A DNA stretch of 61,684 nt, filler included. It is 5 parts of 5 records of this genome, joined end to end, with 100 filler letters (N's around TTAATTAATTAA, not from the genome) between each part and the next. Parts side by side here need not be neighbours in the genome. Positions count along the whole stretch, not along the records: positions 38,067 to 52,330 come from SRR20825010_6325; 4 more parts are not named here. One strand, given 5' to 3'. Below the pieces are notes generated by a model that saw nothing but the letters and a program-made list of their open reading frames with translations, had not been told where the DNA came from and did no database searches. The translations under genes and the position numbers were made by a program. Shown piece after piece: positions 14,463-52,430 of the stretch (position 1 is its first letter; every line of letters starts with the position of its first letter).

Positions 14463-14562
14463 NNNNNNNNNNNNNNNNNNNNNNNNNNNNNNNNNNNNNN
14501 NNNNNNTTAATTAATTAANNNNNNNNNNNNNNNNNNNNNNNNNNNNNNNNNNNNNNNNNNNN
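14463..14562. other. artificial contig spacer
   Basis: N run with TTAATTAATTAA; composition shifts from AT-rich to roughly balanced GC. Confidence 0.98.
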
Positions 14563-33907: not shown

Positions 33908-34007
33908 NNNNNNNNNNNNNNNNNNNNNNNNNNNNNNNNNNNNNNNNNNNNTTAATTAATTAANNNNNNNNNNNNNNNNNNNNNNNNNNNNNNNNNNNNN
34001 NNNNNNN
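33908..34007. other. artificial contig spacer
   Basis: N run with TTAATTAATTAA. Confidence 0.98.
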
Positions 34008-37966: not shown

Positions 37967-38066
37967 NNNNNNNNNNNNNNNNNNNNNNNNNNNNNNNNNN
38001 NNNNNNNNNNTTAATTAATTAANNNNNNNNNNNNNNNNNNNNNNNNNNNNNNNNNNNNNNNNNNNN
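37967..38066. other. artificial contig spacer
   Basis: N run with TTAATTAATTAA. Confidence 0.98.
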
Positions 38067-38067
38067 A

Positions 38068-39369
38068 TGGGGCGAATGGAAAGGCTGGGAACGTGGAATT
38101 ACTCACGTTGACATGATTTCTCCTCGTGTAAAAACTTTAGAAGCTATGCAATTGGCATGGAGTCCTTCTACCAATGGAAAAGATGTAACTGGCGATGTAG
38201 TAACAATCCCTAATGTGGCTAACGAAGCTGAGTTCAAAACTTGGTTAAAAGGCATCAAAGGTAAGTTCGTAATGATTGATTTGGCACAGTTTACTGGTCG
38301 TCCTGATTATAACTGGGAGAAAAACGGCACTGAGCTTTCTATTGAAAACATGAAGAAAGACAGAGCTGAAGAATCAAGAGCTTGGTCACAAAGAATAAGA
38401 AACACAGGCTTAACGTCTCGTACCTTGCCTGCCGCTTTAGAAGAAGCTGGTGCAGCTGGTATTTTGATTTCTAACTGGTCAAGAGGTTTTGGTGCTAACA
38501 AAATTTTTGGTGCTGCTACGAAGACAATCCCTACTGTGGATATAGGGTTAGAAGATTACGGAACACTTTTCAGAATGGTTGAGCACGGTGATACTCCAAA
38601 AATCACTGTAAAAACTACAGGAAAAGATTTAGGCATGGTGCCAACTTTCAATACAGTAGCAGAAATTAAAGGTTCTGAATTACCTAACGAATATGTATTG
38701 CTTTCGGCACACTTCGATTCATGGGATGGTGGAACTGGAGCAACTGACAACGGAAGTGGTACATTAGTAATGATGGAAGCCATGAGAATTTTGAAGAAAA
38801 TTTACCCTAACCCAAAAAGAACAATCCTAGTAGGCCATTGGGGTAGCGAAGAGCAAGGTTTGAATGGTTCTAGTTCATTTGTTCAAGATCACCCAGAAAT
38901 CATCAAAGGGCTTCAAGCCTCTTTCAACCAAGATAACGGTACAGGTAGAGTTGTAAACATTAGCGGACAAGGTTTCCTACACGCATATGAATTCATCAAC
39001 AGATGGTTAGCTCCAGTACCTAGCGCCATTAGAAGAGAAATTAACACTACTTTCCCTGGTACTCCTAGTGGTGGTGGTTCTGATTACGCTTCTTTCTTAG
39101 CCGCTGGTGCCCCTGGATTTAGCTTAAGTTCTACTAGCTGGGATTATGGCTCTTACACTTGGCACACGAACAAGGATACTTATGACAAATTAGTATTCGA
39201 GGATATCAGAAACAATGCTATTCTTACTGCTATCATGACTTACATGGCTTCTGAAGATGCTGAGTTCTTCCCAAGAGATCAAAGTGTATTGCCTATGAAC
39301 CCAAGAAGCGGCCAGCCAATGACTTGGCCAACCCCAAGAAACCCAAATAGAAAAGGTGGAGGAGAGTAA
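38068..39369 (+). CDS. M28 family metallopeptidase, 5' truncated
   Basis: SAHFDSWD, GATDNGSG, SEEQGLNGS, SDYASF, WHT..DTYD; frame open from the contig start. Confidence 0.92.
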   Translation, partial: WGEWKGWERGITHVDMISPRVKTLEAMQLAWSPSTNGKDVTGDVVTIPNVANEAEFKTWLKGIKGKFVMIDLAQFTGRPDYNWEKNGTELSIENMKKDRAEESRAWSQRIRNTGLTSRTLPAALEEAGAAGILISNWSRGFGANKIFGAATKTIPTVDIGLEDYGTLFRMVEHGDTPKITVKTTGKDLGMVPTFNTVAEIKGSELPNEYVLLSAHFDSWDGGTGATDNGSGTLVMMEAMRILKKIYPNPKRTILVGHWGSEEQGLNGSSSFVQDHPEIIKGLQASFNQDNGTGRVVNISGQGFLHAYEFINRWLAPVPSAIRREINTTFPGTPSGGGSDYASFLAAGAPGFSLSSTSWDYGSYTWHTNKDTYDKLVFEDIRNNAILTAIMTYMASEDAEFFPRDQSVLPMNPRSGQPMTWPTPRNPNRKGGGE

Positions 39370-39392
39370 TTCTCAAATGGTTTACAAAATTG

Positions 39393-39421
39393 AAAGGCCT
39401 CGATATTTCGAGGCCTTTTTT
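39393..39421. terminator. bidirectional intrinsic terminator
   Basis: AAAGGCCTCGA-TATT-TCGAGGCCTTTTTT. Confidence 0.85.
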
Positions 39422-39839
39422 AGTATTTAGGCGGCTTGCGCATGTCCTTTTTTTCGGAATGGTTCTTTTTACTTGTGAGCCGCTTTTGAATAGCTCCCTT
39501 AGAAGGCTTGGTTTTTCTACGGGGTTTCGGTTTGGTAAAGGCCTGCTCTATCGCCTTTCTAAACTTAGCAATTACTTCGTCTTTGTTCCGCAGTTGGGTT
39601 CTATGCGCTTCGGAGCTGATCAGAATATCACCCTCATTCGTCAATTGCTTTTCCCATTTCTTAAGCAAAAGTTCTTTTTCTTCTTCGGAAAAAATATAGG
39701 AGCTTTCAACATTGAAACGCAAGGTCACTCGGGTTTCAAGCTTGTTGACATTCTGACCTCCTGGCCCAGAGCTGCGCGAAGTCTGAAATTGAATTTCAGG
39801 CAAAAAGTCTCGGGAAGCTATGGTTTTTGGGTCTTTCAC
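39420..39839 (-). CDS. arfB: alternative ribosome rescue peptidyl-tRNA hydrolase ArfB
   Basis: RSSGPGGQNVNK (GGQ), RTQLRNK, basic tail PKPRRKTKPS. Confidence 0.93.
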   Translation of the reverse strand: MKDPKTIASRDFLPEIQFQTSRSSGPGGQNVNKLETRVTLRFNVESSYIFSEEEKELLLKKWEKQLTNEGDILISSEAHRTQLRNKDEVIAKFRKAIEQAFTKPKPRRKTKPSKGAIQKRLTSKKNHSEKKDMRKPPKY

Positions 39840-39851
39840 TTTTGGTTAAAA

Positions 39852-40616
39852 CTAATCCCTTTTAAACAGCAAGTTACTTTCGTCAGAACCAGCTTCATCA
39901 AAGTAATAACCTTCGTAATCAAAGCCTTTTAATAGCTCTACTTCGTTGACTCGGTTTTTGATAATGTATTGCGCCATCAAGCCCCTCGCCTTTTTCGCAA
40001 AGAAGGAAATGATTTTGTACTGTCCATTTTTAAAGTCTTTGAATTCGACATTGATGACTTTCGCTTTTAAAGCAGGCCTATCTATCGCTTTGAAATACTC
40101 TTGCGAAGCCAAATTGATGAGTACTTTATCGCCTTGCTTTTTCAAATCACGATTCACCTGACTGGCAATGGTGTCCGCCCAATAATTGTACAAAGTAGTA
40201 TAATCGTCAAAGGCCAGACGAGTACCCATTTCTAAGCGATAAGCTTGAATCAGGTCCAAAGGCCTAAGCAATCCATAAAGGCCAGAAAGGATACGCAAAT
40301 GCTCTTGTGCGTAAAGGATGTCTTCGTTTGAAAGTTCTTCTGCTTCAAGGCCAATGTAAACATCACCTTTAAAGGCATAAACCGCCTGTTTGGCCGCTTT
40401 AGAGTCTTTAGACTTCCTAAACTTGTTGTAACGATCAACATTCAATTCGGCCAAGTTCTCACTGATGTCCATCAATTCTTGAATCTCTTCAGGAGTTTTC
40501 TCTTTCAATACACCAATCAACTCTAGCGTTTCCTTCTGAAAACGAGGATATGACTTTTCGGCATTGCAAGGGGTTTCGAAATCGAGGGTTTTGGCAGGAG
40601 AAAGTACGAATAACAT
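39852..40616 (-). CDS. yaaA: peroxide stress protein YaaA
   Basis: LSPAKTLD, ILSGLYGLLRPLD, NLASQEY, AKKARGLMA. Confidence 0.95.
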   Translation of the reverse strand: MLFVLSPAKTLDFETPCNAEKSYPRFQKETLELIGVLKEKTPEEIQELMDISENLAELNVDRYNKFRKSKDSKAAKQAVYAFKGDVYIGLEAEELSNEDILYAQEHLRILSGLYGLLRPLDLIQAYRLEMGTRLAFDDYTTLYNYWADTIASQVNRDLKKQGDKVLINLASQEYFKAIDRPALKAKVINVEFKDFKNGQYKIISFFAKKARGLMAQYIIKNRVNEVELLKGFDYEGYYFDEAGSDESNLLFKRD

Positions 40617-40723
40617 AATTGATCTTAAGCTTTACACAAACATACTAGTTGAGGGCTAGACTTGTTTGGGAAAAGTATTGAAAGTTTAAATAGTAAATAG
40701 ACAGCACAAACCAACTGGAAAAG

Positions 40724-40746
40724 AAAAAAGCCCTTTCGGGCTTTTT
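40724..40746 (-). terminator. intrinsic terminator
   Basis: AAAAAGCCC-TTTC-GGGCTTTTT downstream of the rhodanese gene. Confidence 0.8.
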
Positions 40747-40754
40747 ATTATTCA

Positions 40755-41141
40755 TTATTCCTGCATTTTCTTACCAGCGTTTTGCCAAGCGACAATGCCG
40801 CCTTGGAGTTCATAGATTTCTTTAAACCCCATCTCCTTCATCATTTCAAAAGCTTGTAGACTGCGTGCTCCTGAATGGCAGTACACTGCCACAGGTTTAT
40901 TTTTGTTCAATCCTTCTAACTGAGTTTTAAAATTTTGAGCGTTAAAATTCATTAATGTAGAGTTAGCAATAGCCCCTAGCACATACTCATCCGGGGTTCG
41001 AACGTCAATCACCTGTAAAGAAACATCATCAGCCATCAATGCTTCAAACTCATTAACATCTACTTGCTTCGCTACATTTTCAGCACAACCTAAAGTGAGA
41101 AATGCAATTCCTAAAATCAATAATAAGGTTCTTTTCATCAT
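40755..41141 (-). CDS. rhodanese-like lipoprotein
   Basis: IDVRTPDEY, YCHSGARS, LQGGIVAW; lipobox TLG-C. Confidence 0.9.
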   Translation of the reverse strand: MMKRTLLLILGIAFLTLGCAENVAKQVDVNEFEALMADDVSLQVIDVRTPDEYVLGAIANSTLMNFNAQNFKTQLEGLNKNKPVAVYCHSGARSLQAFEMMKEMGFKEIYELQGGIVAWQNAGKKMQE

Positions 41142-41839
41142 GTCAGTAAATTCCCATCATCGTCCCAAGTAGCAATATCCGTTCTTTTGGTTTGATCAAC
41201 ACATTTGGCCAGCCATTCTTCTTCGTAAGCCATGCCTTGTTGTTTCAATACATCTTCAGGAATACCATCCCAAACACCAGGCATATTCCCTTTATAGCCC
41301 AAGTCCTTCACTCCCATTTCAGAAGTAAAGTAGCCAGTCATGGTCAAGTTTCTCATGGTAGTGAAGAACCGTTCTCCGTGCTTGAGGCCAGGAGCCGTTT
41401 TGCCCGGATAAGCAATGCTATCACAAATGGCTTTATGTTGCTCGTCATTCAGCTTTTTGAACTCCATACCATACAATTTGTTGGAATGGGAATCTAACCA
41501 AGCCAAACCACCACGGAGAGGCAATTGGTTATTTGGCATATCCTTCGCTATAAACTCAATAAACTCAGGCACACCTGCATCAGTTGCCGACCCAAACTCA
41601 GCATTCGCTGGAAGAATGATATCGCACAACACTGCAATCGTCTCTAATTCATGTTCGTTGAAAAAGGTTTCTGAAAGCACCTTGGCATCATGCTCCTTTT
41701 CAGCTTCATTTCTACCATAGCCTGGAAGTTGCGGCTTTTCTGGAGCTACTACTGTATTTTCAGGCGCACAGCCCGTCACGAGCAATCCACCAGCTACAGA
41801 ACCGACCAATAAAGATTTTAATGATTCGCGTCTATCCAT
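41138..41839 (-). CDS. gluconate 2-dehydrogenase subunit 3 family protein (Tat)
   Basis: Tat motif MDRRESLK; LCDIILP...SATDAGVPEFI; GYFTSEMG. Confidence 0.88.
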   Translation of the reverse strand: MDRRESLKSLLVGSVAGGLLVTGCAPENTVVAPEKPQLPGYGRNEAEKEHDAKVLSETFFNEHELETIAVLCDIILPANAEFGSATDAGVPEFIEFIAKDMPNNQLPLRGGLAWLDSHSNKLYGMEFKKLNDEQHKAICDSIAYPGKTAPGLKHGERFFTTMRNLTMTGYFTSEMGVKDLGYKGNMPGVWDGIPEDVLKQQGMAYEEEWLAKCVDQTKRTDIATWDDDGNLLT

Positions 41840-41842
41840 GAC

Positions 41843-43564
41843 TTAAATATTTCTTTGTTTTACTTGTTCAATTAAATAATCTGAGGCTCTCCAAGCCAGG
41901 GCCAAAATGGTCCAGGTTGGATTTTTATCCGCTTGCGATACAAATGGACCTGCATCCATAATAAACACATTCGCACAATCGTGAAGTTGGTTGTATTTGT
42001 TGGTCACCGACTCTTTCTTGTCGTTACCCATTCTGGTAGTTCCCACTTCGTGAATAATTTCACCCGGAGCAGTCAATCCAAAGTTTCTGTCTTTACCCGG
42101 CTTATCGCCTAGCAGAATACCGCCTGTTGCGTCTAAAATTTGCTCAAAAGTATCCTGCATGTGCTCTGCTTGATTGATTTCATGCTCTGTCCATTGGTAA
42201 TTGAACTTCAACACTGGAATTCCCCATTCATCGACTACATTATCATCGATTTCGCAATAATTACCGCGCTGCGGAATACTCTCGCCACGACCTGAGACAC
42301 CTAATACAGCGCCATAGTATTTCTTCACATCCGCACGAAGTGAATCGCCATAACCACCTACATCGGTTCCCATTACTTTATTCAAATTATTTGGATTGAA
42401 ACCGAAGCCATAACTCGGCATTCCCATTCCACCCCAAACTTCAATATGGTAACCCCTTGGGAATTTGAGCTTCTTGTCGTTTAGCCACCAAGGTGTATAA
42501 ACATGCATTCCTCCTACTCCATCTTCATTATAAACCTTACGGTCCATCAGTTTTGGCAGGAATACAGAACGACTAGCACCAGTAGAATCGTGTAGGTATT
42601 TACCCACCAAGCCACTGCTGTTTCCTAATCCATCTTGGTGAACACTACTTTTTGAATTCAATAGAATTCGGGCCGAAGAACAGGCTGAAGCCGCCATTAC
42701 CACAACCTTAGCCCTAAGGTGATATTCCTTTCTATCTAGCTTGTTAATATAGTTTACACCTGTTGCTTTTCCTTCTTTGTCGGTCGTCACTTCGCGCACC
42801 ATACAATTGGTCATCAGCTCAATTTTACCACCATTCTTTTGGGCTGGGAAAATCAAGCAAGTTCCAGAAGAGAAGTCAGCATAGGCTGAGCAGGCACGGT
42901 TACACTGCCCACAATAGAAACAACTTCCTCTTTGGTTATTGATTCTTTTCGTCAAAATAGAAAGCCTTGAAGGAATTACAGGAATCCCTGCTTTTCTAGC
43001 TCCATTAATATAGTATAGTTCGTGAAGTCTTGGTTTTGGTGGGGGTAAGAAGAAACCATCTGGTTCGTTGTGGATATTTTCTTTACTGCCGAACACCCCA
43101 ATAAGTTTATCCACCTTATCATAATAAGGCTTCACATCTTCATAACCAATCGGCCAGTTGTCCCCTAGGCCATCAACGCTTTTACGTTTAAAGTCTAAAG
43201 GCCCAAAACGAAGCGAAATTCTTCCCCAGTGGTTGGTTCTACCTCCCAACATTCTTGAGCGGAACCAAGCAAAACGAGTCCCAGGTGCTTCAGTATACGG
43301 TTCGCCTTCCAGGTTCCAACCACCATAAGCGGCATCATAATCTCCAAAAGACCTTCTATCAGAGCTAGCGCCACGCCTAGGGGATTCCCAAGGCCAGCGC
43401 AATTGTGTTCTGTATTCGTCTTGTGCGGGGTCAAAAAATGGACCTGCTTCGAGTACTGCTACATCGAAACCTGCCTCTGATAGTATTTTAGTTGCCATTC
43501 CCCCACCGGCTCCTGAGCCGACAATGACAACATCATAAACTTTTGAGGATTCTATAACTTGCAT
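41843..43564 (-). CDS. GMC family oxidoreductase (probable glycoside 3-dehydrogenase catalytic subunit)
   Basis: GSGAGG FAD motif, LGGRTNHW, CFYCGQC..AC, HEVGTTRMG, NPTWTILALA. Confidence 0.9.
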   Translation of the reverse strand: MQVIESSKVYDVVIVGSGAGGGMATKILSEAGFDVAVLEAGPFFDPAQDEYRTQLRWPWESPRRGASSDRRSFGDYDAAYGGWNLEGEPYTEAPGTRFAWFRSRMLGGRTNHWGRISLRFGPLDFKRKSVDGLGDNWPIGYEDVKPYYDKVDKLIGVFGSKENIHNEPDGFFLPPPKPRLHELYYINGARKAGIPVIPSRLSILTKRINNQRGSCFYCGQCNRACSAYADFSSGTCLIFPAQKNGGKIELMTNCMVREVTTDKEGKATGVNYINKLDRKEYHLRAKVVVMAASACSSARILLNSKSSVHQDGLGNSSGLVGKYLHDSTGASRSVFLPKLMDRKVYNEDGVGGMHVYTPWWLNDKKLKFPRGYHIEVWGGMGMPSYGFGFNPNNLNKVMGTDVGGYGDSLRADVKKYYGAVLGVSGRGESIPQRGNYCEIDDNVVDEWGIPVLKFNYQWTEHEINQAEHMQDTFEQILDATGGILLGDKPGKDRNFGLTAPGEIIHEVGTTRMGNDKKESVTNKYNQLHDCANVFIMDAGPFVSQADKNPTWTILALAWRASDYLIEQVKQRNI

Positions 43565-43868
43565 ATGGTACAGTTGATTTGAGCTTAAAATTTAAGGAAT
43601 TCAACTGTAACGAAGGCCTTTCACCAAATAAGTTTTTATAAAAAGTTAATTTTTCAATCAACAAACCGATTACATTCAATTTTTTTAGATAAATCGACTT
43701 ATTCCAAAGTAACTTCAAAACCCAAACATTATAAAGGTGTTTATCATAATCGCCAAGTTTAACACTTGTCATCCTCTTAAAAAATGGCAAACTACTTTCA
43801 AAGCTTCAATTAAATTTTTCGTTGTCGGTAAACTTTAATATTTTCGATAAACATTTTGTACTCACTTC

Positions 43869-44744
43869 ATGAAAAAACGACTCCTCGTTTGTCTAGCCTT
43901 TGGCTTATCTACCCTGGTAGCCTATGCTCAAGCACCACCTCCCGACACAGAAATCTATGTCTTTAATCTTAACGAAGTAAGGGGTAACGTAACCATAGAG
44001 AAAGGTAAGAATGTAACAGCGCGAAAAGGCTACGATAATCAACCTTACTTCTATGGGAAAGATCAAATGTTATATACGTCCTATGACAATGGCCAAACAG
44101 ACATCATAATGTTAGACCTTTCAAATAATAAAAAGACGAACCTTACCAACTCAAAGGAAAGTGAATACTCAGCAGCGATGATACCTGGCTCTCAGTTATT
44201 TGCAGCAGTAAGGGTTGAAGATGATGGTGCCCAAAGACTTTGGAAATTTCAGTTAAATCCAAAAGAATCTCCACAACTCGTTTTTGAAAACATCGCTCCT
44301 GTGGGCTATCATGTATGGAGCGGTTCAAAGGTAGCCATGTTTATTCTGGGTACACCTGTTACCTTATTGACAGCCAACACAAAAAAGCCTGATGAGAAAA
44401 AAATCACCGATAATATTGGAAGAACGCTTAAATTGATACCCGAAACCTCAGATTTTGCCTTTGAAAGGACAGAAGAGAACGGTGACAAAAACATTTACCG
44501 GCTTAACTCAAATACTTCAAAGTATGAGTTAACAGTTAAAAAGCCTGAAAACTCAAGTGATTGGACGATAACCAAAGAGGGTACCTATGTAACCAGTTCA
44601 GGATCAAAAATACTGACATTCAGCTCTAAGTATAATAATGAGTGGAAAGAGATTATGGACTTGAGTTCTATGGGACTCTCAGGAATCACTCGGATGGCTA
44701 TAAATGAAAACAACACAAAAATTGCGATAGTCATTAACCAATAG
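43869..44744 (+). CDS. secreted TolB-like beta-propeller protein
   Basis: Signal peptide; GYDNQPYF, NLTNSKESEYS, PVGYHVW. Confidence 0.7.
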   Translation: MKKRLLVCLAFGLSTLVAYAQAPPPDTEIYVFNLNEVRGNVTIEKGKNVTARKGYDNQPYFYGKDQMLYTSYDNGQTDIIMLDLSNNKKTNLTNSKESEYSAAMIPGSQLFAAVRVEDDGAQRLWKFQLNPKESPQLVFENIAPVGYHVWSGSKVAMFILGTPVTLLTANTKKPDEKKITDNIGRTLKLIPETSDFAFERTEENGDKNIYRLNSNTSKYELTVKKPENSSDWTITKEGTYVTSSGSKILTFSSKYNNEWKEIMDLSSMGLSGITRMAINENNTKIAIVINQ

Positions 44745-44854
44745 AAGATTATCTGTTTTTAAATCAATTTTTTTTTCAGAGATTCAAGCGATAAATTGTA
44801 TTATTGTCTTTTGTTGAAACCGCTCTAAAATATTTGCATACCAAATCATTAACT

Positions 44855-45910
44855 ATGTTCAAAACTTATACTTTCCCAAGTGTCTTTGAAGGGAATAATA
44901 CTGACCTCAAAAACGTGTCTCCCGACCTGATCAATGGATTGAAAATTTTTCATAATGGTGAAGGTTATGTAATCGGAAATCTTGCCCTAACCGAAGGGGT
45001 TTCTCCGCATAAAAATATTAACAGTGCACCGGACGAATTGGATTACCAACTTCTTCTAAAAGCCGCATTACTCATTGCCAATCAAAAATTAGGAAACCCT
45101 ATTACAATTACCACAGGATTCCCTTTCTCAACTTTTCAATTGAATAAAGAAAAAGCCACTCAGTTAATTGACGGCCAACATACCGTTGAGTATGACGCAG
45201 CAACTTTCGGTGGTGGAATCAAGAAAAACATTCAAGTTGAAGTAGCTGGTGCTCAAGTGATTCCAGAGGTGATAGGTTGTACCATTGCTTTACGAAAAGG
45301 CGAAACCAAAGCCCAAGGAAACTTCTTTATGATGAGTTTGGGATATGGAACTCTTGAAGGATTATTGAGCACCGAAGGTGGGATTGTACAAAGAACATCA
45401 CTTTCAACTTACGGTCTTCGTTACGCAGTAAACTTGTTGGAAAAAGAACTATCAAAGGAACATTACTTAGAGTTGAAAACAGAACATCAGATTGATGCTG
45501 CGTTCCAAAAAGGAGTGATTTTCTTGAATAGAAAAAGAATTGATATCAGAAGTATGCGTGATAGAGTGCTAAAGCAATATTATGAAGATGTAATATCGCC
45601 AGCCATGCGAAAAGCCTTCAATGACAATGACTTTACAGCAAGTCAGATCATGTATTTAGCTGGGGGTGGCGCAATATATACCGCCCTTGTTGATTGCTTT
45701 AAGGAAGAATTCCGTGATGTATTAGATCTAGAAATTGCACACGAGCCACAATCATTGGCAAGCCGTGGATATTGTATTAACTCTGCCCAACTCAACGGAG
45801 GTGTAAAAAGTACAGCCGTAGGTTTGGATATTGGAAATGCAACCACCGTAGTCTCAATTTTTGAGGACAACAATACTGTGACTGAAACTTCAATTCCTTC
45901 TGAATATTAA
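44855..45910 (+). CDS. ParM/StbA-family actin-like ATPase, apparently circularly permuted
   Basis: FPSV, YVIG, TGFP, IPEVIG (connect 1), SLGYGTLE (phosphate 2), YLAGGGA (adenosine), EPQSLASRGY (connect 2). A phosphate-1-like AVGLDIGNATT lies at the C-terminus. Confidence 0.85.
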   Translation: MFKTYTFPSVFEGNNTDLKNVSPDLINGLKIFHNGEGYVIGNLALTEGVSPHKNINSAPDELDYQLLLKAALLIANQKLGNPITITTGFPFSTFQLNKEKATQLIDGQHTVEYDAATFGGGIKKNIQVEVAGAQVIPEVIGCTIALRKGETKAQGNFFMMSLGYGTLEGLLSTEGGIVQRTSLSTYGLRYAVNLLEKELSKEHYLELKTEHQIDAAFQKGVIFLNRKRIDIRSMRDRVLKQYYEDVISPAMRKAFNDNDFTASQIMYLAGGGAIYTALVDCFKEEFRDVLDLEIAHEPQSLASRGYCINSAQLNGGVKSTAVGLDIGNATTVVSIFEDNNTVTETSIPSEY

Positions 45911-45922
45911 TTAAGAACTCTA

Positions 45923-46375
45923 ATGGCTGTTATTACTCCATCCACACATATTACTCAAATTAAACAAGGCTCAATTATTACGGGCAATCTAAAATCGAGT
46001 CAGAGCATACGTGTGGATGGGAATATCACAGGGGATTTACTTTCTGATGAAAAAATCATCATCGGAATAAATGGAGAGATTGGAGGAAACCTAAGAGGTA
46101 TCGATATTACTGTTGAAGGTTTTGTCAATGGTGATGTAATGTGCAAAGGCTTGCTTCACATTACAAAAGGAGCTAAGATCTATGGTAAAATATATGCCTT
46201 AGAAATATCCATTGAAAAGGGAGCTGAACTGAACGGCAAGGTGAATGTCGGTAAGGATATAGAGATTCCAGAGCTCAACACTTCATCCCCTTCTCGATCT
46301 AGTCAGGAAAAGCCCAGAAATTCAGCTAGCCCGCAAGAAGAGAAAAACGGTAAATACGGCTCAGTAGCTTGGTAA
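45923..46375 (+). CDS. bactofilin (polymer-forming cytoskeletal protein)
   Basis: I.QGSIITGNL...IRVDG.ITG.L...IIIG..G.I.G...ITVEG.VNGDV...IEKGAELNG beta-helix pattern. Confidence 0.92.
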   Translation: MAVITPSTHITQIKQGSIITGNLKSSQSIRVDGNITGDLLSDEKIIIGINGEIGGNLRGIDITVEGFVNGDVMCKGLLHITKGAKIYGKIYALEISIEKGAELNGKVNVGKDIEIPELNTSSPSRSSQEKPRNSASPQEEKNGKYGSVAW

Positions 46376-46396
46376 GTGACCAACTGGTAATCTTAA

Positions 46397-47545
46397 TTAA
46401 TCACATTCTTCCGTTCCATCTACCAACTCGAATTGGTAGAACTCTACTTCGCTGTCAAATGCTTTTATAAAGGGTACTGTAATCAGTTCTTTGAAGCCTG
46501 CAATTGCATCGGATTGAATGAGCACAATACAACAACCGCCAAAGCCTCCCCCCATCATTCTTGCGCCTTTAATATAAGCCAAGCCCTGAGTTTGCTCTAT
46601 AATGAAGTCCAGCTCAGGACAACTCACTTCGAACTTTTGGCTCAACCCCACATGTGATGCCCAAATCAGTTGGCCTAATCCCTCTAAATCATTATTATCT
46701 AAACAAACTTCTGCTAGATTCACACGCTCATTTTCTTCAATCACGAATTCAGCACGCGCTTTCAATTTCTCAGAAAGTCCAGCCACTTTGATCATTTCAT
46801 GTTTTGCGTCCCGTAAGCTTTTAACTATTGGGTATTTACCTTGAACCAACCTTACTACACTTTCGCAGGCTTCCCTCCTTTGGTTATAAGCTGTTTCAGC
46901 CAAAGCATGTTTTACTTTCGTGTCGACCAAAAGCAACGTAAAATCATTGAGGTATAGGGAATGAAAAGTCTTTTCTCTACTTCGGCAATCAAACTTAAAT
47001 ACTTGCCCTGCCTGACCAAATAGGCTGGCCGTTTGGTCCATATTTCCGCACATAACTTGCGCAAAACGATGTTCAGTTTCTTGGGCAATATCTACCAATT
47101 CGTTTCTAGTAAAACCCGCTTCAAACATTTCATTCAAAGCATAAGCAAAGCAACATGTAATGGCGGCAGAAGACGAAAGCCCGGCCCCAACGGGAATGTC
47201 ACTAGTAAAAACGCAGTCAATTCCTTTTAACGGAACTCCCCTTTCACCAAACATCACTAATGCACCAATAAAGTAATTCTCCCAACTGGACTGCCCTTTG
47301 GGTTGAAGTTGGTTTAAATTCGTATTAAGCATTTCACACAAGTCAATGGCACTTACATTCAGGCTATCAGTCTCATTAAAAGCAACTGCCATTCGCGCAT
47401 AGCGATTAATCGCTGCTGGCATTACAAAACCATTATTATAATCGGTATGATCTCCAATCAGGTTAATTCTACCTGGTGATTTAAAGCACCTAGGCACTCC
47501 AGAAAATCGAGCTAAAAACTCCTTTTTTAAAGTATTCAAACTCAT
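46397..47545 (-). CDS. galK: galactokinase
   Basis: PGRINLIGDHTDYN, PVGAGLSSSAA, CGNMDQ, GARMMGGGFGGC; ATGA overlap with the upstream gene. Confidence 0.93.
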   Translation of the reverse strand: MSLNTLKKEFLARFSGVPRCFKSPGRINLIGDHTDYNNGFVMPAAINRYARMAVAFNETDSLNVSAIDLCEMLNTNLNQLQPKGQSSWENYFIGALVMFGERGVPLKGIDCVFTSDIPVGAGLSSSAAITCCFAYALNEMFEAGFTRNELVDIAQETEHRFAQVMCGNMDQTASLFGQAGQVFKFDCRSREKTFHSLYLNDFTLLLVDTKVKHALAETAYNQRREACESVVRLVQGKYPIVKSLRDAKHEMIKVAGLSEKLKARAEFVIEENERVNLAEVCLDNNDLEGLGQLIWASHVGLSQKFEVSCPELDFIIEQTQGLAYIKGARMMGGGFGGCCIVLIQSDAIAGFKELITVPFIKAFDSEVEFYQFELVDGTEECD

Positions 47546-49203
47546 TGAAACAGAATATAAAGCACAGTAAGGATGATACACAAGGCGATAGCACCTGCAT
47601 TAAAGCCAAGTGAGGTATTGAAATCGAAGTCCTTCATGTTCATGGCTTTCTTAGAGTCCACTCCTTTGCCCTCAGCCAATGAAACCACAACCATTAAGCC
47701 CAGGCAAATCAGAAAAACATAGCCCATTCTGTCCATAAATGGTACTTCTGATAAAAACTGTTTGAACAAGATGGAGAATAGGAATGTACTCACACCACCC
47801 ACCAATGCCGCTTTTGGCGTAGTTTTCTTCCAAAAAATCCCTAGAATAAAAATGGCCACAATACCAGGCGTTACAAAACCAGTGTATTCCTGAATGTATT
47901 GAAAAGCTTGGTCTAACTTCCCTAACATAGGTGCTACGATGATCGCCAAAACGAAGGCCACTAATGCGGTTAATCTACCCACATTGACGAGTCTCGTTTC
48001 CGAAGCTTTAGTGTTCATCAATGGCTTGTATATATCCATGGTGAAAATAGTGGCCGTACTATTGGCCATAGAAGCCAAAGAAGAAACAATGGCTGCTGTC
48101 AAGGCTGCAAAGGCAATTCCTCTAAATCCAGAAGGCAAAAACTGTAAAAGTACAGGATAGGCCTTGTCACTCTTAACTGTCATGGTAGCAGCATCCGTCA
48201 TTGACTTGGTTACGCTGTTATCGGGTAAGCCAGCAAGTACATCATTGGTCACACTCATAGAGGCCAAATCGGCAGCTCCTTCCTTCATCAATAAGTAATA
48301 GGCCGCAATTCCCGGAAGCACCACAATAAGCGGCATTAATAACTTTAAATATCCCGCAAACATAACGCCTTTCTGGGCTTCCTTCAACGATTTTGCTGCC
48401 AATGCTCTTTGTGTAATGTACTGGTTCAAACCCCAGTAGCTGATATTTGCAATCCACATTCCACCAATAATTACACCCCAGCCGGGCAGGTCTTCATAAA
48501 AGGAATGATCTTTACTCAATATCGAATCAAAGTGATTGGGTACCGCATCCATTAGCGTTTGGAAGCCTGCAATAGGCCCACTCCCCTCACTTACCGCATC
48601 TAAGGCCAAATAAGTGGTAGCCAAACCACCTGCAATCAGAAAGATCACTTGAATCACATCCGTCCAAGCTACAGCAGTTAGACCTCCGTAAATAGAGTAG
48701 ATCATGGCGAAGAGTGCCAAGCCAATAATAGCATAAATCCGTTCAACGCCCATCACGGTTTCTATGGCCAAAGAGCCTAAATATAGCACTGAAGTAAGAT
48801 TGACAAAAACATATACGCCAATCCAAAAAATGGCCATGGTGGTTTTTACATTGCTATTGTACCGTTGTTCCAGAAACTGGGGCATGGTATAAATCTGCTT
48901 CTTGATAAAAATTGGAAGCAAGAATTTACCTACCAGAATCAGCGTAATGGCCGCCATCCATTCGTAGGATGAAATGGCAATCCCCAAAGCAAAACCAGAA
49001 CCCGACATGCCGATAAACTGCTCTGCGGAAATATTGGAAGCAATCAGTGAAGCTCCTATCGCCCACCATGTTAATGACTTACCCGCTAAAAAATAATCTT
49101 CAGAGGTTTTTTCCTTTTTCTTGTTTCTGAAAGACAAAAAGAGCCCAACACCTATAATAGTAAGGCAGTAGATAATAAAAACAGCATAGTCTAAGATTGA
49201 CAT
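47542..49203 (-). CDS. sodium/sugar (galactose/glucose) symporter, SSS family
   Basis: YFLAGKSLTWWAIGASLIASNISAEQFIGMSG; vSGLT-like. Confidence 0.93.
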   Translation of the reverse strand: MSILDYAVFIIYCLTIIGVGLFLSFRNKKKEKTSEDYFLAGKSLTWWAIGASLIASNISAEQFIGMSGSGFALGIAISSYEWMAAITLILVGKFLLPIFIKKQIYTMPQFLEQRYNSNVKTTMAIFWIGVYVFVNLTSVLYLGSLAIETVMGVERIYAIIGLALFAMIYSIYGGLTAVAWTDVIQVIFLIAGGLATTYLALDAVSEGSGPIAGFQTLMDAVPNHFDSILSKDHSFYEDLPGWGVIIGGMWIANISYWGLNQYITQRALAAKSLKEAQKGVMFAGYLKLLMPLIVVLPGIAAYYLLMKEGAADLASMSVTNDVLAGLPDNSVTKSMTDAATMTVKSDKAYPVLLQFLPSGFRGIAFAALTAAIVSSLASMANSTATIFTMDIYKPLMNTKASETRLVNVGRLTALVAFVLAIIVAPMLGKLDQAFQYIQEYTGFVTPGIVAIFILGIFWKKTTPKAALVGGVSTFLFSILFKQFLSEVPFMDRMGYVFLICLGLMVVVSLAEGKGVDSKKAMNMKDFDFNTSLGFNAGAIALCIILTVLYILFQ

Positions 49204-49632
49204 AGTATCTTATATGGTTTTAGTTTTTAAGCCGCTAAAAGCTTGAAAGCACTGTGGTATTGGCAGTACTATAAAATTACAATATATACTTATTTTCTTG
49301 TTTGAGAGGAGACATTTCTAGGATTGGAAATCCGAATGCAATTTGATCATGTCCAGTCCATTAGGCTTTAAGCAAATTGACCTAGTAAGTCCACAAGTGT
49401 TTAGGGCAATTGTTTTTCTAGTTTTGGTGTACCAAACAGTTATCAACATAAGGCTTTCGGGTAAGAACGTAATTCTCATAAAAGGCATCTGGGAAATGAT
49501 TATTCTAGGCTACCGACTTGGAGGACTGAAAAATTATTTCCGCCAGAAAAAAACAAGCCAGACAAACCCATCACATTTGCTTTTAAAAAGCAAAAGAACT
49601 ACATTTTAATTGCAAATAAACATATAGAGCAG

Positions 49633-50550
49633 ATGGCTTACATTAGATTAACTATATTCTGTCTTGGAGTAGCAGCCTTCTTTATCTTCAAGTCATTCTT
49701 CGTTTCGGAAAAAGAGGAAGTAAAAGAAGATTTCTTAACGGAATTTAGTCAATCCAATTTTTGGGAGATAAAGACTGCGGGATTAGCCTCAGAAACACCT
49801 AAATGGATATTCGAAACGAGGTTTAACAATTATAAAGAGAACCTCCAGAGTCTTAAAGGAGCCACTTCAAATATATTAGTCATCTTAGCGCTAGGCATAT
49901 TGTTAATATTCTACAGACCTGATGGCATCCAAATATCATTCTTGAGTGTAAAGATACCTGAAGGGCTATTGTACCTAATAATAGTTTTTGGGTCATTTTA
50001 TACTTGGTCTAATTTTGGTTTAGAATTGAATTCTGCAATTCGGTCTAGACTGGCACTGCACGATAATCTTGAAACACTTATTAACAACCCAATACATAAC
50101 ATTGTTAATAGTGATAAAGATAGTATCTCGGCTGGCCAAAAACCCAGCGAGGCCTTGTTCGATCATGGAGTAGTTGACAATTGGGTAGTGCACTTCTTTC
50201 CAAATCATTTTAATGTGTCGGGAGATGAAAAAATAATGAAAGTATGGTCTTCAATTGGTCTTTACGGCCTTTATGGTCTAATGGCTGGATCGCTCTTCGC
50301 GTTGAGTTTTATTACATCCATTGAATTAGGGGATAGAAAAAAAAGATCAAAGTTTTACTCAAACGTTCTGTTGGTAATTTCCATCGGTGTCGTACTGACA
50401 CCTTGTTACTTCTGGGCTACATCTTTGCATACCTACAGTGCTGGCTATATTGGTTACATGTGGGTAATTGCTGCCATTTGGGTATACTTCTGGAATAAAA
50501 GTGGAAAGCACATTTCGGAAAAACTAAGAGAAATTCTTCAAACTGATTAA
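49633..50550 (+). CDS. hypothetical multi-pass membrane protein
   Basis: 305 aa with about six hydrophobic segments. Confidence 0.7.
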   Translation: MAYIRLTIFCLGVAAFFIFKSFFVSEKEEVKEDFLTEFSQSNFWEIKTAGLASETPKWIFETRFNNYKENLQSLKGATSNILVILALGILLIFYRPDGIQISFLSVKIPEGLLYLIIVFGSFYTWSNFGLELNSAIRSRLALHDNLETLINNPIHNIVNSDKDSISAGQKPSEALFDHGVVDNWVVHFFPNHFNVSGDEKIMKVWSSIGLYGLYGLMAGSLFALSFITSIELGDRKKRSKFYSNVLLVISIGVVLTPCYFWATSLHTYSAGYIGYMWVIAAIWVYFWNKSGKHISEKLREILQTD

Positions 50551-50843
50551 GCTGCAAAAACTAAAAATGTACTATTCTTATAAATGTAGACAACTCATTA
50601 AAACCCTGACGCAGCCTCTCTCACCTGTGTTCTGCCAGGTCTATGTATTTAAAAAAACGCTGTCCGTATTAGGATCACTCCACTAACCCACTGTCCCCCT
50701 CCTTCAAAATCTCCATTAACGAACTGAATCAACATTAACACAATCAGAGATGCACAATTTATTACTTGATCTCTTGTCTATTCAAGTTAATTTCATAAAT
50801 TAATGCAACTAAACGCACGTGCAGTCAGTATAAATATTAACCT

Positions 50844-51386
50844 ATGGATAAAAGAGAAGAACTAATTGGCATCGCTACGGCCCTATTTTCAGAAAGGGGA
50901 TTTGAAAACACCCCTCTATCGGTAGTCTGCGAAAAAGCCAATGTGTCCAAAGGTTTGATTTCACATCATTTCAAATCAAAGAATGGATTGCTCAGAGAAA
51001 TCTTTATAAAAACGACTGAACTCATCATTGAAATGAACCGGTTAGATCAATCCAATCAGACACCTAATGAGCAACTACGCACATTATTGGAATCATTCTT
51101 TTCACAACTAGAAAGCGATAAAATGCTTTTTCAGTTCAACCTCAATATGATGGTGCAACCAAATACCAGGACCATATTAAGCGATTTAATTAAAGATAGA
51201 TCTGATTTTATATTGAGGTCTGTACAAAGTATTTACAATCAAATCGATCCCCATACATCTTTGGTCATGAGTCATGCTTTTATAGCAGAAATGGATGGAA
51301 TAGCATTAAACTACTTAGGGGTTTATGATGATTTTCCTTTAAGAGAAATCAAAGACCACATTATTACAAAGTACACATCACAATGA
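50844..51386 (+). CDS. TetR/AcrR family regulator
   Basis: HTH ALFSERGFENT...ANVSKGLISHHFKSK. Confidence 0.92.
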   Translation: MDKREELIGIATALFSERGFENTPLSVVCEKANVSKGLISHHFKSKNGLLREIFIKTTELIIEMNRLDQSNQTPNEQLRTLLESFFSQLESDKMLFQFNLNMMVQPNTRTILSDLIKDRSDFILRSVQSIYNQIDPHTSLVMSHAFIAEMDGIALNYLGVYDDFPLREIKDHIITKYTSQ

Positions 51387-52165
51387 AGGTAATAAAAACG
51401 AATAGTACAGAAACAATCGACAGTTTAAGGTCGAAATTATATCAAAAGCTGACCGCGCCAATAGATGCCATGTGGGAGTTACTCTACATTGCTTCGTCCC
51501 AGCATTTCTTGATTGAAGATGAAGCAAAGAACATAGGCTACTGCTGTATTGACAATGGAGACAGCTTGTTACAGATATACCTGATAGATGAATATTCTCA
51601 TCAAATAGATAGGGTTATTACATCATTAATCGAATCAAGGCTCATCAGTTCCGCCAAGTTAAGCTCTAGTGCGCCTGTAGCTTTTAATACTTGCCTGTTT
51701 CATTCCAACTCAATCAAAACAAACACTATCTGCTATCAACACACCAATAGTATCATAAAGAATGTGGCTCCCTTGAATTTAGAATTGGCTACGGAAGAAG
51801 ATATTTCTGCTATCAAAGTATTCTTAAAAGAGCAGGTGGGAATGGACGACACATTTGGTTATACAGAAAACCTGGTTACCAGAAAGGAAATCTATTTCAT
51901 CAAAGAATCAGACATGATCATTGCCACAAGTGAATGTCGAATGAGTGATTCTCAACCTGAATTTGCCGATTTAGGAATTATCGTGAGTAAAAATCATCAA
52001 GGAAAAGGTATGGCAACAAAAGTGATGCGAATGCAAGTAAACAGAGTTTTAGAGATAGGAAGAAAACCTATTTGCTCTACTACACTAGACAATCTATCAT
52101 CGAGAAAAGCCATAGAGAAGGCCGGCTTCTATTGCACCAATGTCATTTTCGATATTAGTTTTTAG
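51383..52165 (+). CDS. GNAT family N-acetyltransferase
   Basis: DLGIIVSKNHQGKGMAT, N.SSRKAIEKAGF; ATGA overlap with tetR. Confidence 0.88.
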   Translation: MKVIKTNSTETIDSLRSKLYQKLTAPIDAMWELLYIASSQHFLIEDEAKNIGYCCIDNGDSLLQIYLIDEYSHQIDRVITSLIESRLISSAKLSSSAPVAFNTCLFHSNSIKTNTICYQHTNSIIKNVAPLNLELATEEDISAIKVFLKEQVGMDDTFGYTENLVTRKEIYFIKESDMIIATSECRMSDSQPEFADLGIIVSKNHQGKGMATKVMRMQVNRVLEIGRKPICSTTLDNLSSRKAIEKAGFYCTNVIFDISF

Positions 52166-52330
52166 AAATCAAAGATTTAACTACAGCACCATAGGTTTGA
52201 GGGAGAATGAAATTCTCTTGGTGCCAAAATCAAGATGATAGACAGTAGATTATACTATAGAAGTTAAATAGAAGTCATTTATCTACTATCTCGTGAATAT
52301 TTTTAGAAGCTAAAGCGAAATGCACTAAAG

Positions 52331-52430
52331 NNNNNNNNNNNNNNNNNNNNNNNNNNNNNNNNNNNNNNNNNNNNTTAATTAATTAANNNNNNNNNNNNNN
52401 NNNNNNNNNNNNNNNNNNNNNNNNNNNNNN
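52331..52430. other. artificial contig spacer
   Basis: N run with TTAATTAATTAA. Confidence 0.98.

Follow-up and report, generated by a model that had tools for sequence, protein, structure and literature searches.

An apparently undescribed module of Bacteroidota that pairs a circularly permuted ParM-type actin with a bactofilin

What does a ParM-type actin do on a bacterial chromosome when the gene that follows it encodes a bactofilin? The question is raised by two genes in the window, which is the whole stretch of DNA analysed (61,684 nucleotides) and consists of pieces joined through runs of N at 14463-14562, 33908-34007, 37967-38066 and 52331-52430. Because the GC content shifts across these joints, from about 0.33 to 0.52, 0.40 and 0.57, the pieces represent different organisms; the gene pair lies within the piece at 38067-52330. 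The actin-like ORF runs on the plus strand from an ATG at 44855 to a TAA at 45910 and encodes 351 aa. We placed its start at the conserved MFKTY at 44855; the TTG at 44804 given by the ORF finder is farther upstream. The bactofilin gene starts with an ATG 12 nt past the actin stop (45923-46375, plus strand) and encodes 150 aa, with a bactofilin domain (PF04519) at residues 12-107 (E 3e-21, 75.9 bits against a cut-off of 27.9) and a Ser/Pro-rich low-complexity tail (46244..46372, plus strand) that ends KYGSVAW and is predicted to bind actin in a ParR-like way. These coordinates and the Pfam match agree with an earlier, sequence-only reading, which had described an actin-like gene followed 12 nt later by a bactofilin with this tail. 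Records of Roseivirga echinicomitans (including L030) and one Roseivirga MAG contain this actin at 100% identity.

The pair had also been placed among housekeeping genes (arfB, yaaA, galK and an SSS transporter), and Pfam matches of the neighbours were in accord: an RF-1 domain protein (arfB-like), YaaA, a rhodanese, a GMC oxidoreductase pair, galactokinase and an SSF symporter. The claim that no ParR-like adaptor, iterons, or plasmid or phage genes lie nearby was borne out by searches of ORFs, of repeats, and of plasmid, phage and viral sequences. No ORF of at least 80 aa, the size of ParR, was found between or beside the two genes in the ORF search of the locus. Repeats in 43500-46800 were only two-copy and at chance level, with no iteron array, and the top 5-mer count in the gap upstream of the actin was matched by 1000 of 1000 shuffles. 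Directly upstream of the actin, on the same strand, lies a gene encoding 291 aa with a signal-peptide-like start (43869-44744), for which Pfam and NCBIfam gave no match; it precedes the actin in 32 of 80 loci (best 80 of 280), those of the Roseivirga group and Penaeicola, and is absent elsewhere. A pattern match located a conserved upstream element, TAAATTGTATTATTG, at 44792..44806 on the plus strand. Of 30 Roseivirga-group loci, 23 had such a 15-nt element, one copy each, at 53-63 nt ahead of the ATG; it is probably a promoter belonging to the pair itself. The TAnnTTTG promoter pattern of Bacteroidota occurred upstream in 14 of 77 loci versus 5 of 77 controls and was absent from the window, and scans for sigma-70 promoters and terminators gave results at chance level.

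We then analyzed the motifs of the actin. All five nucleotide-site motifs of ParM/Alp actins were present (named partly according to the alignment in PMC12713370), all on the plus strand and in the order connect-1 (E138; 45266..45268), phosphate-2 (S161-T166, SLGYGT, with Ser for the usual Asp; 45335..45352), adenosine (G270-G272, GGG; 45662..45670), connect-2 (G305) and phosphate-1 (D325, G327, N328). The last lies in a relocated beta1-phosphate-1-beta2 hairpin (residues 321-336, with GLDIGN at 323-328; 45815..45862). Among 79 aligned homologs, E138, S161-x-G163-x-G165-T166, E168, G270-G271, G305 and G323-x-D325-x-G327-N328 showed no variation. We take Glu138 to be at the position of the catalytic Glu/Gln of actins. 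The GxDxGN motif lay beyond residue 300 in 119 of the 120 homologs listed, the one exception being a partial protein, and none of the 120 had a DxG within its first 25 residues, the canonical place of phosphate-1. Wherever the phosphate-2 pattern matched, its first residue was Ser in the permuted proteins (Gln in one subgroup), whereas it was Asp in matches of canonical order.

The AlphaFold model of the actin (pLDDT 88, pTM 0.88) contained a beta-hairpin at 321-336, with strands E321-326 and E330-336 (block pLDDT 92 and 84). Its closest folds were ParM/Alp structures, with Foldseek E values of 1e-14 to 1e-9 and Z scores of 18-27. Against Dh-cParM1 (8x1i; Z 26.6, rmsd 2.9, 297 aligned), model residues 1-318 matched chain residues 23-364; CorM gave a Z of 24.5, and the ranges in other structures were 21-349 (6ixw), 19-325 (2fsj) and 22-320 (R1 ParM). 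In the top structures, model residue 1 met chain residue about 18-32 and the alignment stopped near model residue 318. The C-terminal hairpin gave weak matches to DnaK residues 2-20 and to FtsA profile positions 1-26. In sequence searches, Pfam gave only sub-cut-off matches to the actin itself, homologs of which carry ALP_N; a PDB search with the single protein found nothing, and a profile of the actin reached only E 0.002, to 8x1i. When a 21-column hairpin profile was compared with 23 canonical ParMs, the N-terminal motif was not significantly found: for 5 of the 23 the best match fell within the first 30 residues, and all were weak. The case for the permutation is made instead by motif conservation and the structure offsets.

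Motif order, the 119 of 120 homologs listed and the structure offsets together upheld the view, already taken from the letters alone, that the actin is permuted: as judged from sequence and model, it is a circularly permuted ParM whose phosphate-1 hairpin has moved to the C-terminus. The model suggests that hairpin 321-336 sits in the nucleotide site. From actin geometry, the new termini would presumably lie at the edge of the barbed-end pocket, the place where adaptors bind. An assembly artefact was ruled out because the permutation is family-wide and also occurs in isolate genomes. As for MreB, the NCBIfam model gave no match to the actin (P0001) at E 1, and the neighbours are not mreC or mreD. 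Databases label members of the family simply as ParM/StbA family.

Is the pairing with the bactofilin conserved? A scan of GTDB genomes gave 280 relatives, of which the best 80 were kept, a set biased to close relatives. A bactofilin lay within 350 nt downstream of the actin in 73 of these 80 loci, mostly at gaps of -1 to 30 nt; of the remaining seven, two were cut by contig ends, four had long-form actins (see below), and one (L075) had no bactofilin. These counts are of related genomes and not of independent events. The flanks of the loci varied and were unrelated between genera. We also used an unbiased set, an even sample of 401 phylum genomes, of which 21 had the actin (n = 20 with the centre genome omitted): 11 had an adjacent bactofilin, two had one within 1.2 kb, and 7 had none within 1.5 kb downstream and no Trp tail either. 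Five of these seven genomes were searched whole and had only bactofilins without a terminal Trp, though the genomes may be incomplete. The pairing is thus not obligate. For the idea of two co-operating polymers, which the sequence-only reading had put forward, the evidence is divided: adjacency is kept in the best 80 while the flanks change, and it is absent in 7 of the 20 unbiased genomes. The actin itself was found in 33 of 33 genomes of the genus, 25 of 201 of the family (one weak), 7 of 301 of the order and 21 of 401 of the phylum sample; it is a core gene of some genera and patchy above genus level. Plasmid, phage and viral-contig searches with the actin family gave no match, in keeping with the expectation that its homologs are not mostly mobile.

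Several loci depart from the common arrangement. In one Roseivirga genome (L144:2124-2420, G435), about 250 residues are lost in frame between two INSA microhomologies, by deletion or assembly error, and the bactofilin is intact. In G400 (L102/L132), a degenerate permuted paralog, to which P0159 and P0169 are akin, lies upstream of an intact actin, and two short Trp-less bactofilins lie downstream. Two high-GC genomes carry two separate pairs each (L095 and L108 in G261; L098 and L109 in G365), with long acidic tails ending in W. In a Balneolales locus (L062:7281-9868), bactofilins stand on both sides of the actin, and of these the upstream one lacks the final W that the downstream one has. 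In G018 (L126:2308-6027), a bactofilin-less actin is directly preceded by a 1239-aa pentapeptide-repeat (beta-helix) gene, with like genes in L091 and L092. The partner bactofilin at L080:1123-1730 has an internal stop codon, and the frame runs on to a tail ending NQRWW. No longer actin fusions (784-2235 aa) to a bactofilin were found, which is weak evidence; P0123 and P0124 have low-complexity extensions and, by eye, no bactofilin domains.

The tail of the partner bactofilins was the second conserved feature. Trp was found in the last three residues of 79 of 84 complete partner bactofilins, as the final residue in 74, versus 4 of 246 background families and none of 15 actin-unlinked bactofilins, most of them M23-linked. 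Otherwise the tails differ by clade and end in unrelated motifs (YGSVAW, FPRTW, GGGWI, NRWW, KIEW). The partner is a separate gene from the M23/atp-linked bactofilin of the same species, which sits elsewhere (L085), and a quick tree set the partner bactofilins apart from the atp/M23-linked ones, on a short alignment with long branches.

We next looked for the origin of the permutation. An exhaustive profile search gave 237 matches at E 0.001; the best 150 of the 237 included ParMs of canonical order and a distant group that shares both the permutation and the Ser. A profile of this distant clade aligned with that of the actin family over 316 columns, collinear through the C-terminal hairpin (E 7e-38). 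A quick tree built from 88 proteins gave the Bacteroidota group as one clade (SH-aLRT 99) and put all permuted proteins on one side of a branch whose SH-aLRT was only 54. In a long-branch permuted subgroup (P0247, P0280, P0281), phosphate-2 has Gln and the linker helix ahead of the C-terminal hairpin is almost missing. DNA was recovered for two members of the distant clade. On L145, a 3 kb metagenome contig (cassette at 131-1658), a 116-aa ORF begins in a 1-nt overlap with the end of the actin gene, and the 137 nt ahead of the actin hold 7 ACATC repeats (reached in 0 of 1000 shuffles), with three more across the other 2940 nt. On L146, a 38-kb IMG/VR contig (2921-7681), the actin is divergent to an 841-aa primase-helicase gene, and a 128-aa ORF comes after it with the same overlap of 1 nt; the repeats upstream of this actin were not significant. 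A 73-aa basic ORF and a DnaK-like gene are also present there.

Homology between the two small proteins covers their first 60 residues (BLASTP E 3e-12), after which come a low-complexity linker and LGLK-containing tails. They gave no Pfam, PHROG or PDB match, so the term ParR-like refers to their slot, size and anatomy. By analogy, the layout of the two loci resembles parC-parM-parR, suggesting that the small proteins may be ParRs. Plasmid and phage searches with P0181 and P0207 of the distant clade gave no match; viral scans found nothing for P0201 and P0219, and for P0247 gave only two 20-residue matches, which were disregarded. Because the distant permuted clade stands before ParR-like genes (2 of 2 loci), with iteron-like repeats at one locus and a viral primase-helicase at the other, the permutation likely arose in a partition cassette in which a bactofilin later replaced ParR. 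Partition adaptors were not found beside the actins of the Bacteroidota family. They occur as ParR-like genes among its distant permuted relatives, one of them on a viral contig, which the sequence-only reading had missed; these relatives explain the origin of the module and do not refute it.

How does the module compare with known systems? In type II ParMRC (R1, pSK41, pCBH ParM, Alp7A, AlfA) and in chromosomal Dh-cParM1 (8x1i), the fold and the order of actin and then tailed partner are the same. Unlike in ParMRC, the chain here is permuted, phosphate-2 has Ser, and ParR, parC and plasmid or phage copies of the family are absent. According to the available part of one source, ParR binds DNA through an N-terminal domain, and its C-tail, conserved though unstructured, enters a hydrophobic pocket of ParM, the tails being clustered (PMC5016525). 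The partial text of a second describes Anabaena CorMR as a chromosomal ParMR without DNA binding that gained a membrane helix and controls cell shape, with CorR recruiting CorM to membranes through a C-terminal peptide (10.1101/2025.06.27.661541). As in CorMR (PDB 9rmi), a chromosomal ParM-fold actin is here followed by an adaptor gene, with no parC function; the adaptor peptide that binds actin and the cortical role in shape belong to CorMR and are proposed here by analogy. CorM has the normal order and aligns from residue 61, whereas our chain is permuted, and CorR is a ribbon-helix-helix protein with an added N-terminal amphipathic membrane helix, whereas the second gene here encodes a self-polymerising beta-helix (PF04519). 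The available part of the CorMR paper (10.1101/2025.06.27.661541) contains no occurrence of bactofilin, permut- or Bacteroid-.

Mad28 of deep-branching magnetotactic bacteria is likewise actin-like and chromosomal, with an SxGxG phosphate-2 and a VGLDxG phosphate-1, and is described, in the parts of the sources available, as positioning cargo at the membrane (PMC10653835, PMC12713370, PMC12748827) and as polymerising with ATP-gamma-S (PMC10653835). The Ser is therefore precedented and compatible with polymerisation. Comparison through the published alignment gave Mad28 the canonical order (phosphate-1 at 68, connect-1 at 212, phosphate-2 at 236, adenosine at 337, connect-2 at 375; PMC12713370, available part), which rules it out as a member of the same family. 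An N-terminal amphipathic extension of about 65 residues and a magnetosome-island context are its own, and the available parts of the Mad28 papers do not mention bactofilin. By their defining features, the module is not a member of ParMRC, CorMR or Mad28, and by analogy it most likely works like CorMR. Neither a permuted ParM nor an actin-bactofilin gene pair was found in the literature searched, which held few subscription journals; the supplements of the CorMR paper, a survey of chromosomal ParMs across phyla, may list members. Taken together, the permuted actin and bactofilin module is real, conserved and apparently undescribed.

We favour, at slightly less than an even chance, a mechanism in which ATP-driven actin filaments are bound, anchored and stabilised by the tails of bactofilin polymers, forming a chromosomal cytoskeleton comparable to CorR/CorM. 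The bactofilin occupies the gene slot that the ParR-like gene has in mobile relatives. The actin would polymerise with ATP, which we infer from its fold and from the polymerisation of Mad28 with the same Asp-to-Ser change. Many tails on one bactofilin polymer would then act on the barbed-end pocket like clustered ParR tails. Contact with the membrane might be made by the bactofilin N-terminus in many members, or by a client protein, and in long actins by the amphipathic fused tail. The output, the weakest step of the scheme, may be to control the shape of the cell locally or to position a cargo at its cortex.

The tail is where this mechanism can be weighed against others. The sequence-only reading had suggested that it may bind the actin or the membrane; it is a specific and conserved element, and its target is where readings diverge. 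The two genes could be co-expressed parts of one cortical structure in which the target of the Trp tail is not actin but the membrane or some third protein, for example a wall enzyme. Among the 120 matches listed, all 19 long-form actins have a 75-110-residue extension ending in W, and five short-form actins have W in the last three residues; the four long-form genomes searched had an M23-linked bactofilin only. The fused tails are basic and amphipathic (moment 0.54-0.66), as membrane anchors are, which speaks for this alternative. By contrast, the partner tails are mostly acidic and non-amphipathic (39 of 66 net negative, median hydrophobic moment 0.25), so a protein site fits them better than an anionic membrane. 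In the model of one long form, the linker was disordered and the fused tail, with a low-confidence terminal helix (421-428, block pLDDT 59), showed no docking onto the actin. Prediction of a complex of actin 1-342 and the 30-residue tail, run with no alignments and no folded controls, gave an uninformative score of 0.01. Comparison of 31 tail-bearing with 9 tail-less actins showed five positions that differ, none strongly, and no surface patch that tracks the tail. The bactofilin N-terminus, MAVITPST, is unlike the MFSKQAKS-type membrane-targeting sequence (motif from the available part of PMC12448750), and a rough membrane-targeting pattern was passed by 33 of 84 partner bactofilins.

A third-protein target also draws on known bactofilins, whose clients bind core or tail (PMC12448750, available part), on actins without any Trp tail, and on M23 genes that recur near the pair: an M23 peptidase gene adjoins it in L070 and L078 and also in L131, and not at our locus. 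In L131 (G146) the order is M23 peptidase, permuted actin, TPR protein, bactofilin without Trp, atpI-like and ATP synthase A, so that the actin lies within the housekeeping M23-bactofilin-atp locus. These neighbours hint at recruitment of the bactofilin from a wall-remodelling bactofilin-M23 locus (PMC10945521, available part). In BacA-LmdC (PMC10945521) and BacP-PadC, as far as the available text goes, the bactofilin polymer is likewise a recruitment platform for the product of a linked gene. In contrast, the linked gene here encodes a ParM-type actin, from its sequence a predicted cytoplasmic ATPase filament protein, and its bactofilin is a paralog of its own, whose longer tail ends in Trp, the M23-linked one being kept elsewhere in the genome. 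Against a membrane or third-protein target, none of the 15 unlinked bactofilins has the Trp, the actin itself often carries it where the partner is absent, and the bactofilin has the slot of the ParR-like gene. We consider this alternative unlikely.

The family-wide Ser in phosphate-2 might also mean that the permuted actin makes no long filaments and is a nucleotide-gated regulator (a cap, nucleator or disassembly factor) of the bactofilin polymer. Bactofilins have no nucleotide switch of their own (PMC12448750, available part), and the degenerate paralogs P0159 and P0169 would be in line with such a role. D325, E138, T166, E168 and the GG motif are nevertheless invariant, Mad28 makes filaments with the same Ser, relatives in partition-like cassettes have this Ser too, and the actin also occurs without a bactofilin, making a purely regulatory role improbable.

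Derivation from a partition cassette raises the further question of whether the module still moves DNA or other cargo, with the bactofilin linked to chromosome-partition proteins and the actin pushing. BacP does bind PadC through a long tail (PMC12448750, available part). Iterons were nevertheless found in none of 77 related loci (137 nt upstream regions), and a scan of 81 neighbour families, about half of which had no match at all, found no partition, replication, integrase or transposase gene; no small neighbour family was conserved at the loci, and the slot after the actin holds a bactofilin and not a ribbon-helix-helix parR. The chromosomal analogue CorMR governs shape and not DNA, according to the available part of its description. 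Retained transport is about as improbable as the regulatory role, or slightly more so. That the pair is a relict or selfish cassette whose adjacency was inherited without joint function, as the patchiness above genus level and the internal deletion in one Roseivirga copy might suggest, is very improbable given its presence in every genome of the genus, its invariant active site, and the tight spacing and terminal Trp kept across distant lineages.

Taking the actin-anchoring mechanism together with the origin described above, we tentatively propose, as a history more doubtful than not when taken whole, that the permutation arose once in a mobile ParMRC-type cassette, that domestication in Bacteroidota swapped the DNA-binding adaptor for a bactofilin, and that the Trp tail couples actin to bactofilin. 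It would be a parallel domestication by replacement, in which the bactofilin polymer supplies clustering and contact with the cortex and the Trp tail the actin-binding end. The solved actin-fold structures listed start with the phosphate-1 hairpin, and its relocation to the C-terminus with the active site kept would surprise structural biologists; a permuted actin puts to the test the limits that the order of the chain sets on polymerisation. Through its gene context the family offers, after CorMR, a second independent case of a plasmid motor becoming a host cytoskeleton, here with the adaptor replaced and not modified, and a direct connection of two kinds of filament usually studied apart. 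If the proposal is true, it would be the first case in which a dynamic actin filament is coupled directly to a static polymer of bactofilin, and the fused-tail and tail-less forms would be natural experiments. The system is tractable, as it consists of two small soluble proteins with members in cultured type strains (Roseivirga, Cyclobacterium, Belliella, Mucilaginibacter), and the ancestral-type (ParR-like) and derived forms are both in hand. It is likely that in these bacteria a motor for segregating DNA was turned into a cytoskeleton of two filaments.
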